Shown here piece by piece: positions 7,933 through 31,146 of a stretch of 32,686 nt of DNA; within the stretch, counting starts at the first letter, position 1; each line of letters begins with the position of its first letter. Origin of the DNA: Bdellovibrionales bacterium (GTDB taxonomy: Bacteria; Pseudomonadota; Alphaproteobacteria; UBA9219); the NCBI GenBank assembly GCA_050252315.1, contig JBFWLD010000002.1, positions 1 through 32,686 on the forward strand, in the 5' to 3' direction. A program made the translations under genes and the position numbers. The notes beneath the pieces were generated by a model. That model was given only the letters and a program-made list of their open reading frames with translations. It made no database searches and was not told where the DNA came from.

Positions 7933-7947
7933 GATTCCCCCAATAAC

Positions 7948-7980
7948 ATAAGGATGAATTCCTTATGCAAAGGAATCCTT
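7948..7980. promoter_or_regulatory. Two adjacent palindromes sharing AAGGA/TCCTT half-sites, in the cydA/luxI divergent intergenic region
   Basis: ATAAGGA-TGAAT-TCCTTAT (7948-7966) and AAGGA-A-TCCTT (7970-7980). They sit 16-48 nt upstream of the cydA start codon. No known regulator consensus was recognised; they do not match the FNR/Anr box TTGAT-N4-ATCAA. Confidence 0.3.
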
Positions 7981-8058
7981 ACTTTGTCGTTAAACTAAAA
8001 ATACATACCATTGCACCAAACGTTACATTTGCGTTTATTATGAATACGTTAGCTATCC

Positions 8059-8074
8059 CTACGACTATTCGTAG
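8059..8074. promoter_or_regulatory. Candidate lux-box-like operator upstream of the AHL synthase gene
   Basis: CTACGA-CTAT-TCGTAG is a perfect 6-4-6 palindrome that fits the minimal CT-N12-AG pattern of LuxR-type boxes. It is centred about 66 nt upstream of the synthase ATG. A possible -10 (ctaatt) lies near 8098. Confidence 0.35.
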
Positions 8075-8132
8075 CTATGACAACAGACTCATTTCTCCTA
8101 ATTTCCTCTCATGGTTTTTGGGAGGTGTAGGT

Positions 8133-8780
8133 ATGCTATACGCAATAAATATAGAAAATGCGCATGAATACGGCGATGCGATGGCTCAACTCTATCGACT
8201 ACGTTTCAGACAATTCAAGGAACGCCAGAGTTACGCCGTTCCCGTTTATAAAGGTATGGAATACGATCAATACGATACGCTGGCGACCGTCAATCTGGTT
8301 TGGATTGACGAAGACGGCATCGTTCGTGGCAGCTCTCGACTTAATCCGACGGATCGCCCTTATATGCTGGCTGACCTTTGGCCGCAAATGTCCGATCAGC
8401 CCTTGCCGCATGACTCACGCATCTGGGAAGGAACGCGTATCTGCATCGAAAAAAACCTGTCCGGCGAGCTGCGCGAACGCATTAAATGGGAAATCATTCT
8501 GGGCTATTTGGAATTCGGCCTTGCCAACGGTATCGAAAAATATATTGGCGTGATGATGAATTATATCTGGCGGCGCGTTTTTATCCAATCCGGATGGGGC
8601 GCGGATTATTTGGGTGAAGAGCGGCTCATCGACGGTCTGAAAACTCGCGCCGGTCAAGTATTCGTTTCTCAGGAAGCTTTGTACCGCGTTCGGCAGACAA
8701 CGGGGATTACCTCGCCCGTTCTCCAAAACATGCTGCGCGTTGAGCTGGACTCCGAAACCACCGAAGCCTTGGCTTCCTAA
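8133..8780 (+). CDS. LuxI-family acyl-homoserine-lactone synthase, 215 aa
   Basis: Autoinducer-synthase signatures are present: LYRLRFRQF, EYDQYD, RGSSRLNPT and WEGTRICI. The start was set at the ATG at 8133, preceded by gggaggtg (SD). The longer track ORF starting at 7965 is not supported. Confidence 0.85.
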   Translation: MLYAINIENAHEYGDAMAQLYRLRFRQFKERQSYAVPVYKGMEYDQYDTLATVNLVWIDEDGIVRGSSRLNPTDRPYMLADLWPQMSDQPLPHDSRIWEGTRICIEKNLSGELRERIKWEIILGYLEFGLANGIEKYIGVMMNYIWRRVFIQSGWGADYLGEERLIDGLKTRAGQVFVSQEALYRVRQTTGITSPVLQNMLRVELDSETTEALAS

Positions 8781-8812
8781 GCTTTCAGGATTACGACCCT
8801 CATGAGAAGAAA

Positions 8813-9139
8813 ATGAATACCCCAAAAAGAATAAGCAAAAAAATTAACGCAGGCACACATCAACTCTTACTACGCCTTGAGCCTTGTCTTTGGAATGATT
8901 TGGAGGAAATCGCACGCAGAGAGGCCCTATCTGAAGATGATTTATGGACACGGATATGGCAAGCTAAACCTCCCAAGACGTCTATCGCTCAGGCGGCGCG
9001 CGTTTTTATTGTCGATTATTTCCGCCATGAATATATCAAAAGATGCGGCCATGGCGGTAAGGCTAAGATTGAGCCCTGTATGTCGGGGCAACTTTACGAG
9101 CCTGACGAGCCCGCTATTATCTGGACGACCGACGAATAA
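8813..9139 (+). CDS. Ribbon-helix-helix (RHH_4-like) small protein, 108 aa, between the QS synthase and receptor genes
   Basis: The core LLLRLEPCLWNDLEEIARREALSEDDLWTRIWQ...SIAQAARVFIVDYF follows the pattern I recall for the alphaproteobacterial RHH_4 family. That pattern is a beta-strand, then FW..L..IA...G.S...L, then a C-terminal A.R.F.L.YY-like helix. The ORF starts 32 nt after the luxI-type stop, and its last 23 nt overlap the convergent luxR-type gene. Confidence 0.6.
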   Translation: MNTPKRISKKINAGTHQLLLRLEPCLWNDLEEIARREALSEDDLWTRIWQAKPPKTSIAQAARVFIVDYFRHEYIKRCGHGGKAKIEPCMSGQLYEPDEPAIIWTTDE

Positions 9140-9893
9140 ACACCGCCTCATCCAAGCCCAGAATCCCGCTGTTTACCGCCCGCATTACCGCATACATTCG
9201 ATTGGGCGCGTTAAACTTTTTAAGGATATTGCGTACATGAAAATCTACGGCGTGGCGGCTCATGTTCATATCATGTGCGATGCAATCGTCTTTTTTCGCG
9301 CGAGCCATGTGACGGATAACTTCTATCTCGCGGCTGGTTAAAACCACGCGATAGTCATCCATGCCTTTACGTTTGTCATGCACCGCGCAAAACACAACGT
9401 AAAATTGCTGCGCAATCGCATTAAAAAGCCCTAGCTTATAACGGACGTCTTCCGGTTTGTCGGACGCATCATTCGTACTGTTCGCAACGCCGATGCCGCC
9501 CAGTTCTCCCGTCAGCCCGCGCAGGCATACTGCCGCGCCATTGTAAAACCCTGACTCACAACATTCATGCATGCAGATTTTTTGCTGGGGCGTAAGATCC
9601 ATAACTAACGGCAAGGCGTCCCAGATAAACGGCCCCACATGACGAAAACCAAAACGTCGCACAGGGTCGATATACTCATATCCCTTTTCAACATAATGTT
9701 TCATCCACCCGTCCGGGTAATTACGCATTACCCCGTGCCCTTCCCTTAGCCCCAAGCTGGGGTGGTCCGACATGAGGCTAAACAAAACACGATCGTAGCC
9801 GCAGACGTCAAAAAGGGCTTGCTCAAGCAAGGTATAGAGTTCTTCTGCGCTCTTCGCCTCGTTTGAGCTAGAAATGAACTGGGTCAGATCCAT
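9117..9893 (-). CDS. LuxR-family AHL-responsive transcriptional regulator, 258 aa
   Basis: The N-terminal autoinducer-binding domain pattern is present (YPDGWMKHYVEKGYEYIDPV...GPFIWD). The C-terminal GerE/LuxR HTH is present (LTSREIEVIRHMARAKKDDCIAHDMNMSRHAVDFHVRNILKKF). The first ATG is at 9893; the track ORF begins earlier at a TTG. Confidence 0.85.
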   Translation of the reverse strand: MDLTQFISSSNEAKSAEELYTLLEQALFDVCGYDRVLFSLMSDHPSLGLREGHGVMRNYPDGWMKHYVEKGYEYIDPVRRFGFRHVGPFIWDALPLVMDLTPQQKICMHECCESGFYNGAAVCLRGLTGELGGIGVANSTNDASDKPEDVRYKLGLFNAIAQQFYVVFCAVHDKRKGMDDYRVVLTSREIEVIRHMARAKKDDCIAHDMNMSRHAVDFHVRNILKKFNAPNRMYAVMRAVNSGILGLDEAVFIRRSSR

Positions 9894-10125
9894 GTGTGAA
9901 CACGATTGCTTGCAATATTTGGAATTAACGTGCTCGCAGACTAATACATTGCTATTATGATTCCAAGACAATAGTAACTATACACCCTAATACCCCTACA
10001 TTTGTATGTATTATCCTTTTTCTTATTATATCTTTGTCCCAAAGCGTAATAAAAAGATTTACATCACATAATTTGCATGGTGTTCTCCTCGGCCTACACC
10101 TGCACACAACTTGGGAATATCCACG

Positions 10126-10548
10126 ATGCTTCATCCTTTCTTGACGCGTTGCCGCCTTAATAACGTCTCTTTCTTTTCCCTTGATTTTTATCGCTTTAAA
10201 CACACGGAAGAAACGATTGTCTCTTCCGACAAAAAGCAGAAAATACAAACGCGGCCTTTATGGGTCGTTGGTATTTCTCCTTTCGACCCCGAACTATCCG
10301 AGGAATCCGGTCACATCGTCCATTTGGGCTATCCCAGATTTACAGCCCGGTGGACCCTGAACGACGAACTCATCGAACAGATCGACACGCCTGATTACTA
10401 CGATGAAGATCTCAACATGATTATCTATGACGTTATTCCTCTGGATGGTTCCGAGGGGCCTTCGGAGGAGTGGCTGCTTGAAGCGGTTTGTGCCGTCGGC
10501 TATTCACGCGGCTTGATCACCATGGCTCCTGCTATCGAAAAGCACTGA
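10126..10548 (+). CDS. Hypothetical protein, 140 aa, acidic C-terminal half
   Basis: ATG at 10126. Translation: MLHPFLTRCRLNN...RPLWVVGISPFDPELSEESGHIVHLGYPRFTARWTLNDELIEQIDTPDYYDEDLNMIIYDV... No domain was recognised. It is divergent from luxR across an AT-rich 232-nt region, and it ends 10 nt before the 3' end of tRNA-Arg. Confidence 0.5.
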   Translation: MLHPFLTRCRLNNVSFFSLDFYRFKHTEETIVSSDKKQKIQTRPLWVVGISPFDPELSEESGHIVHLGYPRFTARWTLNDELIEQIDTPDYYDEDLNMIIYDVIPLDGSEGPSEEWLLEAVCAVGYSRGLITMAPAIEKH

Positions 10549-10558
10549 TTTAGAAAAA

Positions 10559-10635
10559 TGGCGGACCCGAGACGATTCGAACGTCCGGCCTTTGCCTTCG
10601 GAGGGCAACGCTCTATCCAGCTGAGCTACGGGTCC
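10559..10635 (-). tRNA. tRNA-Arg (anticodon CCG)
   Basis: The reverse complement folds as a 77-nt cloverleaf. Acceptor GGACCCG/CGGGTCC, then TA, D-arm GCTC-AGCTGGATA-GAGC. Anticodon arm TTGCC-CTCCGAA-GGCAA (anticodon CCG). T-arm GGACG-TTCGAAT-CGTCT. Discriminator G and an encoded CCA. Confidence 0.92.
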
Positions 10636-30465: not shown

Positions 30466-30846
30466 TTATTTACGGGTTGCGATCTTCTTGCCCGCAATCG
30501 CTTTGGCCGGGCCTTTGCGCGTGCGCGCATTGGTGTGCGTACGCTGGCCGCGCACGGGAAGGCCTTTACGATGACGCAAGCCGCGATAGCAGCCCAAATC
30601 CATCAATCGCTTGATGTTCATGGCAACTTCACGACGAAGGTCACCTTCAACCTTGTAATTCTGGTCAATGTCCTCACGGATACGAAGCAACTCGGCTTCG
30701 GTCAGTTGGTTGACGCGCTTGACGGGGTCAATCCCGATACGCGCACAAATCTCCAACGAGTTTGTGGGACCAATTCCATAGATGTAACGCAAAGAAATGT
30801 GCAGAGGCTTACCTGCCGGAATATTAACGCCTGCAATACGGGCCAC
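30466..30846 (-). CDS. rpsM: 30S ribosomal protein S13, 126 aa, GTG start
   Basis: (M)[25 protein letters not shown]...[27 protein letters not shown] is canonical S13. The GTG at 30846 is preceded by aggagagccac. Confidence 0.95.
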
Positions 30847-31146
30847 GTGGCTCTCCTAAGTTTTTAAGCGACCGGTCCAAACGTATCCTACAACTTTCGC
30901 TAAAGATACTCCCAGTCTTTCAGACCGCCGATAAGTTCAACGACTCATTTGTTGGCGATCCACCTCATGTGGGACTTTCCCGCGATGCGCCTAGGCTCTA
31001 GGACCAAGCTTCACCCAATGCAAAAGCCATCCGGCGCCTTCTTTTCAAGTAAAGAGGCCAGACAGCACATCGTTGGATGGTATTATAAAAGCATGAACCA
31101 CCACAGCGTCACGGGCACGGCCTCCCCACAAGGGGCCGAGGAGCGC

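Follow-up and report, generated by a model that had tools for sequence, protein, structure and literature searches.

The window analysed here, a stretch of 32,686 nucleotides (nt) from a Bdellovibrionales bacterium (NCBI GenBank assembly GCA_050252315.1, contig JBFWLD010000002.1, positions 1 to 32,686 of the forward strand), harbours a quorum-sensing locus of the acyl-homoserine-lactone (AHL) type, in which a small gene, assigned to the ribbon-helix-helix (RHH) family RHH_4, is situated between a luxI-type synthase gene and a convergent luxR-type receptor gene. Gene order and fold family were observed directly, as was the conservation of both the lux box and the synteny, and the unit kept among relatives consists of the lux box, luxI, the RHH_4 gene (missing in one lineage), luxR and a further gene, orf140. 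The AHL locus contains a putative accessory regulator gene, whose fold was not found described for this position in the literature searched and which may represent the same biology as GinA of Komagataeibacter (Gluconacetobacter) intermedius. The best explanation for the arrangement, to which we give about an even chance, is that the RHH_4 protein is quorum-induced and relays the signal to further genes.

Layout of the locus and the luxI promoter

The luxI-type gene (8133–8780, + strand) encodes an AHL synthase of 215 amino acids (aa) (PF00765 Autoind_synth, E 1.4e-24) and is followed, after a gap of 32 nt (8781–8812), by an open reading frame (ORF) of 108 aa on the same strand (8813–9139; PF13467 RHH_4). 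The luxR-type gene is found on the opposite strand (9117–9893, - strand) and encodes an AHL receptor and transcription factor of 258 aa (PF03472 Autoind_bind, E 6.8e-23; PF00196 GerE, E 3.9e-12). This is the layout that a preliminary description, made from the letters of the window, had given at the same coordinates, and to it are now added the lux box, an overlap of the two convergent genes and the conserved fourth gene, orf140 (10126–10548, + strand), which is divergent from luxR and encodes a conserved protein of 140 aa with no family assigned. As both the synthase and the receptor domains are recognised by Pfam in genes standing side by side, the locus belongs to LuxI/LuxR AHL quorum sensing; the NCBIfam assignments of synthase and receptor concur, with models of TraI-type AHL synthases scoring below their cut-offs. 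A search with the LuxI of the window gave 94 homologues, the closest with 84% identity, and LuxR is 83% identical to its orthologue in the locus of that closest homologue (L170). At their 3' ends the 108-aa ORF and luxR have 23 nt in common, an overlap that involves the last seven sense codons and the stop codon of the ORF.

In the mechanical ORF list, as well as in the automated gene call, luxI is longer (271 aa, from 7965). The relatives with 62–84% identity are mostly ~205–215 aa and those inspected begin with MLYAIN, and a conserved lux box lies inside the extension; the start was therefore placed at 8133 and the call at 7965 is considered over-extended.

When the upstream regions of luxI from the window, L170 and a second relative, L001, were aligned, a single strongly conserved block appeared, the lux box, located at 8057–8076 in the window (CCCTACGACTATTCGTAGCT) with its centre 66 nt upstream of the ATG and presumed to be the binding site for LuxR-AHL in the luxI promoter. 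The corresponding sequences are CCCTACGAATATCCGTAGCT in L170 and ACCTACGAATATTCGTAGGT in L001, the latter a perfect palindrome of 20 base pairs, and the block has ACCT...AGGT at its ends, as in the classical lux box, the Vibrio fischeri site. The box is unique in the window, and zero matches are expected by chance since no shuffled sequence gave one. Its core, CTACG-N6-CGTAG, was found in 30 out of 170 loci, mostly just upstream of luxI, and among the relatives the box is kept in L170, L001, L002, L008, L090 and L091, 48–73 nt upstream of the ATG, with -10-like hexamers ~30 nt downstream of it in members of the clade. No second lux box was found anywhere in the window; the intergenic stretch from which luxR and orf140 diverge (9894–10125), presumed to hold both promoters, is without one and showed only short conserved blocks in the alignment with L170 and L001.

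Neither a terminator-like nor a promoter-like site was detected in the gap between luxI and the 108-aa ORF. Among the relatives the RHH gene begins 0–80 nt past the stop codon of luxI, and in L091 stop and start overlap as ATGA. With the lux box upstream and no terminator between the two genes, the ORF is most likely read through from the LuxR-AHL-activated promoter, and a single activated transcript covering both luxI and the RHH gene is the most economical reading of the sequence. A terminator-like site was not detected between the convergent RHH ORF and luxR either and, as their 3' ends overlap, read-through into the end of luxR might, irrespective of the RHH_4 protein, damp luxR by convergent transcription, which is offered only as a hypothesis.

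A small gene directly 3' of luxI, on the same strand and after only 32 nt, is placed as expected for a GinA-type gene, and the anatomy of lux box and predicted read-through fits a quorum-induced gene of that type at least as well as it fits a repressor of RsaL type. In the latter case the RHH_4 protein would bind at or near the promoter of luxI (or those of luxR and orf140) and cap AHL synthesis in a negative feedback, the outcome of which would be homeostasis or a higher threshold for induction. RHH proteins commonly repress their own genes (Arc, CopG, MetJ and antitoxins are textbook cases), and the own promoter of this gene would here be that of luxI. Such feedback is also favoured by the fact that most genes between luxI and luxR in other bacteria are negative regulators, 40 out of 48 single genes in this position being RsaL or RsaM (PMC3386692). 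The alignment of the three luxI upstream regions, however, showed no conserved motif besides the lux box, and as no second conserved operator was seen in the promoter an output role fits better than autorepression. Two adjacent palindromes with an AAGGA/TCCTT core do occur at 7947–7984 in the window (AAGGATGAATTCCTT at 7950–7964 and AAGGAATCCTT within 7970–7984), in the intergenic region between cydA and luxI and just upstream of the start of cytochrome bd subunit I. These are not conserved in L170 or L001, which likewise speaks against an autorepressor; we consider negative feedback by the RHH_4 protein possible though rather doubtful.

Fold and C-terminal end of the RHH_4 protein

The preliminary description had proposed an RHH_4 fold for the 108-aa ORF, and four lines of evidence bear this out. 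Compared with PF13467 the ORF scores 30.9 bits (gathering score 25, E 2.7e-7), with the match spanning residues 20–69 of the ORF and positions 15–66 out of 67 in the profile. A profile of the ORF and its luxI-linked relatives matched PDB entry 3kk4 at E 2.5e-8, the one solved structure that was hit, which is BP1543 of Bordetella pertussis and was deposited as uncharacterised. An AlphaFold2 model built from an alignment of 50 sequences (mean predicted local distance difference test score, pLDDT, 77, and >90 over residues 11–70) contains the strand-helix-helix core expected for the fold (strand 16–22, helices 24–36 and 41–51) together with an extra strand, 7–13, and an extra helix, 58–78, so that the RHH_4 core spans residues ~7–78, and the model is disordered in residues 80–108. 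When this model was compared with the PDB using Foldseek, 3kk4_A came first (probability 1.00, template modelling score 0.55), although with a best E-value that is weak (0.038), and single-chain Arc came fourth (probability 0.75); weak Foldseek E-values are usual for small intertwined folds. By profile and by model the 108-aa ORF is thus placed in the RHH_4 fold family, a fold from which dimeric, sequence-specific DNA binding would be expected.

The protein is a divergent member. NCBIfam gave no match for it, and neither did a word-index protein search, apart from the ORF itself, while an exhaustive phmmer (HMMER) search gave 310 relatives at E ≤ 1e-3. The closest is P0096, encoded in L170, with 58% identity over residues 4–81; the remaining ones are ~28–48% identical and those inspected or annotated by Pfam are ordinary RHH_4 proteins. 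In the alignment of 50 sequences, of which the window protein is one, R21, L22, E23, W27, R36, E37, K52, S57, A61, R63, V64, F65, Y69, E73 and G79-H80-G81 are invariant. In the first strand, the window protein has Q-L-L where the family has a nearly invariant R17-T18-S19. The DNA-reading strand, with HRTSVRLE as its family consensus, is HQLLLRLE in the window protein, while L170 has HRVLLRLE.

Hydrophobic residues in place of the strand consensus could also be read as a sign of protein contacts, either with LuxR, on which the protein would act as an anti-activator in the manner of TraM or QslA, or with orf140 or a housekeeping RHH_4 paralogue through mixed dimers. The extra helix and a GHxxAGHG motif are conserved in the family with no role assigned to them, and the existence of stand-alone housekeeping paralogues makes mixed dimers conceivable. 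The RHH fold is, however, overwhelmingly a DNA-binding one according to textbook knowledge, and a Pfam-A scan of the ORF at E ≤ 1 gave RHH_4 and nothing else, hence no membership in RsaL, RsaM or TraM (the presence of these models in the libraries being unchecked). With no sequence relation to TraM or another anti-activator, a role of this kind appears very improbable.

The preliminary description had also noted a C-terminal tail of about 35 residues containing Cys and His, which did not prove to be a module of its own. Among RHH_4 relatives the core is directly followed by the conserved motif YFRxAATEEGHxxAGHG, of which the counterpart in the window reads YFRHEYIKRCGHGG; E73 and G79-H80-G81 are retained and the rest is lost. 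The GHG of the tail is accordingly a remnant of the family-wide ATEEGHxxAGHG. The first of the tail cysteines is shared with P0096 and the second is missing from this closest homologue, and past residue 80 there is no conservation and disorder is predicted. With so few positions of the motif retained and the residues beyond it unconserved and disordered, the tail is best described as a decayed family motif with an unconstrained extension. Metal binding by the tail was rejected on the same grounds, the cysteines not being conserved and the region being predicted as disordered. A toxin-antitoxin or defence function of the RHH gene was likewise rejected, there being no partner toxin gene and no match in PADLOC.

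Occurrence, evolution and surroundings of the RHH_4 gene

The occurrence of the gene was studied in 168 luxI-anchored loci, of which seven came from looking up three LuxI homologues by exact match, 80 were the best LuxI loci among species-representative genomes and 80 were metagenome loci; the last one, L170, was obtained by looking up the closest LuxI homologue in the same way. ORFs in all six frames were scanned with a hidden Markov model made from the phmmer hits of the 108-aa ORF and with LuxI and LuxR of the window. An RHH_4 ORF was present in 19 of the loci, in all 19 downstream of luxI and on the same strand; for a family present in a few copies per genome, far fewer luxI-linked cases would be expected by chance. 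In a neighbour-joining tree the loci with a LuxI at least 63% identical to that of the window form one clade, in which luxI and luxR are convergent throughout, and the order luxI, RHH_4 and convergent luxR was found in nine out of ten sampled lineages of this clade (the window, L170, with a LuxI 84% identical, L001, L008 and L090–L094). In the tenth lineage (L002–L004) the RHH_4 gene is absent, and a gap of 188 nt holds no detectable remnant. The gene order seen in the window is thus real and kept next to luxI homologues. A protein of 331 aa in the database, P0048, is a frameshifted LuxI fused to RHH_4, that is, a luxI-RHH_4 read-through product.

The approximately 150 more distant loci are mostly tandems of luxR and luxI, in that order, without an RHH gene. 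A second group carrying the gene was found among Bryobacterales, other Acidobacteriota assemblies and unclassified metagenome contigs, with the order luxR, luxI, RHH_4. The RHH gene is adjacent to luxI in three cases (L061, L065 and L066) and located 0.6–1.7 kb from it in eight (L024, L029, L126, L128, L129, L135, L147 and L152). The two of these that were inspected, L128 (3600–6500) and L029 (4600–6600), contain luxR, luxI, a small ORF, an XRE-type gene on the opposite strand and RHH_4. Judged by their translations, neighbouring ORFs resemble genes for an antirestriction protein and for a methyltransferase, and a mobile element is thereby suggested at these two loci, one from an Acidobacteriota assembly (L029) and one from an unclassified metagenome contig (L128).

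Compared with L170, the non-synonymous divergence (dN) is 0.46 for the RHH gene and 0.13, 0.11 and 0.17 for luxI, luxR and orf140, respectively (synonymous sites are saturated against both relatives compared, leaving only dN comparable); the RHH gene is thus the least constrained of the four, its rate of evolution being about fourfold that of luxI and luxR. The PF13467 scores fall from 77 bits in L092 and 61 in L008 to 31.0 in L170, 30.9 in the window and 23.3 in L001, just below the threshold, and the low scorers make up one sub-branch of the LuxI tree. Together with the loss of the gene in L002–L004, the predominance of negative regulators in this position in other bacteria and the departure of the DNA-reading strand from its consensus, by which DNA recognition may be altered or weakened, these results weigh against a relay role.

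Part of them would be expected if the RHH_4 gene had a function in the clade's ancestor and came under relaxed selection in the sub-lineage of the window, contributing little today and leaving luxI, luxR and orf140 as the core set that matters. The stepwise fall in Pfam score, the outright loss, the fourfold dN of the gene over its neighbours, the replaced consensus residues in the DNA-reading strand and the decayed C-terminal motif all agree with such a decaying passenger. Against it, the window, L170 and L001 all have an unbroken reading frame, an identical RHH protein is present in an independent sequencing run, the identity to P0096 has stayed at 58% over residues 4–81 in spite of saturated synonymous sites, and the core is modelled with a pLDDT >90; the invariant columns of the 50-sequence alignment are kept as well, by definition as the window protein is included in it. 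We therefore regard decay as unlikely. The fast evolution could also reflect co-evolution with a lineage-specific operator, as a feedback repressor might show, whereas the lineage that lost the RHH gene has kept luxI, luxR and orf140, so the circuit can persist without such a repressor.

Regarding the origin of the gene, two stand-alone RHH_4 genes encoding 137–138 aa were looked up (L173, 3001–3417, and L174, 3001–3414), both beside a gene for a DnaJ-domain protein and in housekeeping surroundings, cobS/cobT and accA in L173, greA and recA in L174. Stand-alone copies score as high as the luxI-linked ones, and the chromids of Azospirillum carry several RHH_4 copies, none of them linked to luxI. 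As two of the top-scoring relatives looked up are stand-alone and the Azospirillum copies are not luxI-linked, the luxI-linked genes look like recruited copies, with the stand-alone housekeeping genes as their likely source. In a neighbour-joining tree of low resolution, branches are longer for the luxI-linked copies than for the two known stand-alone ones and for most of those whose context is unknown, and the luxI-linked copies show no grouping; the tree is star-like and does not separate a single recruitment to luxI from repeated ones.

A quorum-induced relay would then work as follows. LuxR bound to AHL would sit on the lux box at 8057–8076 and activate the promoter, giving a transcript that spans luxI and, by read-through across the 32-nt gap, the RHH_4 gene, so that the RHH_4 protein would be made only at quorum. 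The protein would be a small dimeric DNA binder, recruited from the stand-alone RHH_4 family, whose members come mostly from alphaproteobacterial and unclassified metagenomic assemblies, and would act as a second-tier transcription factor passing the quorum signal on to further genes, as GinA does; feedback on its own circuit would be possible in addition. Co-transcription is here inferred from the promoter and gap, DNA binding from the fold and the relay role from the likeness to GinA.

All loci of the convergent clade have an orthologue of orf140 beside luxR, the one in L170 being 76% identical. As it is retained also in L002–L004, where the RHH gene is missing, orf140 is the more constant partner of the locus. 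No match was found for it in Pfam, NCBIfam or PADLOC; being equally conserved, it is a second candidate component of the circuit. The flanks of the four-gene module differ between relatives, cytochrome bd genes and a tRNA-Arg in the window, purA and a transglutaminase-like gene in L001, PhyH and triose-phosphate isomerase in L002, which suggests that the module is a portable cassette. In L172 (1–6417, on the same contig as L092) it is surrounded by an exosortase (EpsH/EpsI) and glycosyltransferase cluster, a setting that hints at quorum control of exopolysaccharide production.

In the window the module stands between the cytochrome bd oxidase genes and tRNA-Arg(CCG) (10559–10635, - strand), which is located 10 nt past the end of orf140, and a search for a direct repeat of the tRNA-Arg end, as left by the integration of a genomic island, found none. 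Elsewhere in the window an alpha-operon ribosome binding site was identified at 30814–30928 (- strand; Rfam 48.8 bits, gathering score 38), which represents ordinary regulation of a ribosomal-protein operon.

Comparison with known systems

Accessory genes within quorum-sensing loci, such as those for RsaL, RsaM, TraM and MupX, set the timing and sharpness of the quorum switch, and few kinds of them are known. That an RHH-type gene in this position is not a characterised class of modulator, as the preliminary description had stated, agrees with the searchable literature, in which no RHH gene in luxI/luxR loci was found described. A survey from 2012 of genes intervening between luxI and luxR lists RsaL, RsaM, MupX, mobile-element genes, one LuxR-like gene and five unknowns (PMC3386692). 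None of the luxI/luxR accessory regulators described in the literature searched has an RHH fold, and the gene is thus a possible new type of modulator.

RsaL of Pseudomonas, the archetype of an in-locus modulator, is like the window protein a small protein of a DNA-binding family whose gene lies between those for LuxI and LuxR homologues. RsaL has a tetrahelical helix-turn-helix fold, is encoded divergently from lasI and binds next to the lux box (PMC3386692, PMC10710839), whereas the window ORF has an RHH fold and is co-oriented with luxI. The genes for RsaM, TofM and AbaM are likewise small and stand alone between luxI and luxR, and they modulate AHL output. RsaM constitutes a single-domain family reported from 62 genera of proteobacteria, for the most part Burkholderia and Acinetobacter (PMC10710839), and the window ORF differs from it in belonging to RHH_4. 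In Acidithiobacillus the gene orf3 is situated between afeI and afeR and oriented as afeI (PMC3759942), a similar layout, and the genus is among those that carry RsaM in a luxI/luxR locus (PMC10710839); afeI-orf3-afeR was for this reason taken neither for the same system nor for a likely homologue (the sequence of Orf3 itself not being compared).

With the Arc, CopG and MetJ repressors the window protein shares the strand-helix-helix core; a sequence relation to them is not detectable, and in RHH_4 the core is extended by a strand at the N-terminus and by a long third helix. BP1543 (3kk4), its best structural match, and the stand-alone RHH_4 proteins belong to the same family by profile, but the window copy is shorter and more divergent than the stand-alone copies, which are not next to luxI, and is located behind a lux-box promoter. 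No mention of PF13467 was found in the literature searched. The family is widespread, with one solved structure, and a copy behind a lux-box promoter provides a concrete hypothesis for it, that of a quorum-induced DNA-binding protein.

The closest parallel in position and description is GinA of the GinI/GinR system, a protein of 89 aa encoded downstream of ginI which according to reviews is quorum-induced and regulates genes. In both systems a small gene directly follows a luxI homologue, and the same operon logic would apply to the window. Iida et al. are said to have described in 2008 a LuxR-type inverted repeat at about -45 and read-through into ginA from the ginI promoter. The layouts differ: ginR and ginI have adjacent locus tags in K. 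uvaceti (PMC7970039), which places ginA beyond ginI, on its far side, and this order resembles the Bryobacterales loci with luxR, luxI and RHH_4 and not the convergent layout of the window, a resemblance that is suggestive but proves nothing. Komagataeibacter and other acetic acid bacteria did not occur among the best 80 LuxI loci of species-representative genomes, nor was a Komagataeibacter record among the matches listed when plasmids were searched by tblastn with LuxI and two RHH queries.

To our knowledge no mechanism by which GinA controls genes for acetic-acid fermentation has been known since 2008. It is tempting to see in RHH_4 a regulator class that would be the third, next to RsaL and RsaM, to be embedded in luxI/luxR loci. 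A housekeeping paralogue would have been the source of its recruitment to the AHL loci of an uncultured LuxI clade and of Acidobacteriota, GinA would be a member, and with orf140 the genes would form a portable four-gene cassette; taken as a whole this is a tentative proposal and more probably wrong than right. If GinA does belong to the RHH_4 class, this would explain how GinA controls genes and give PF13467 its first function.

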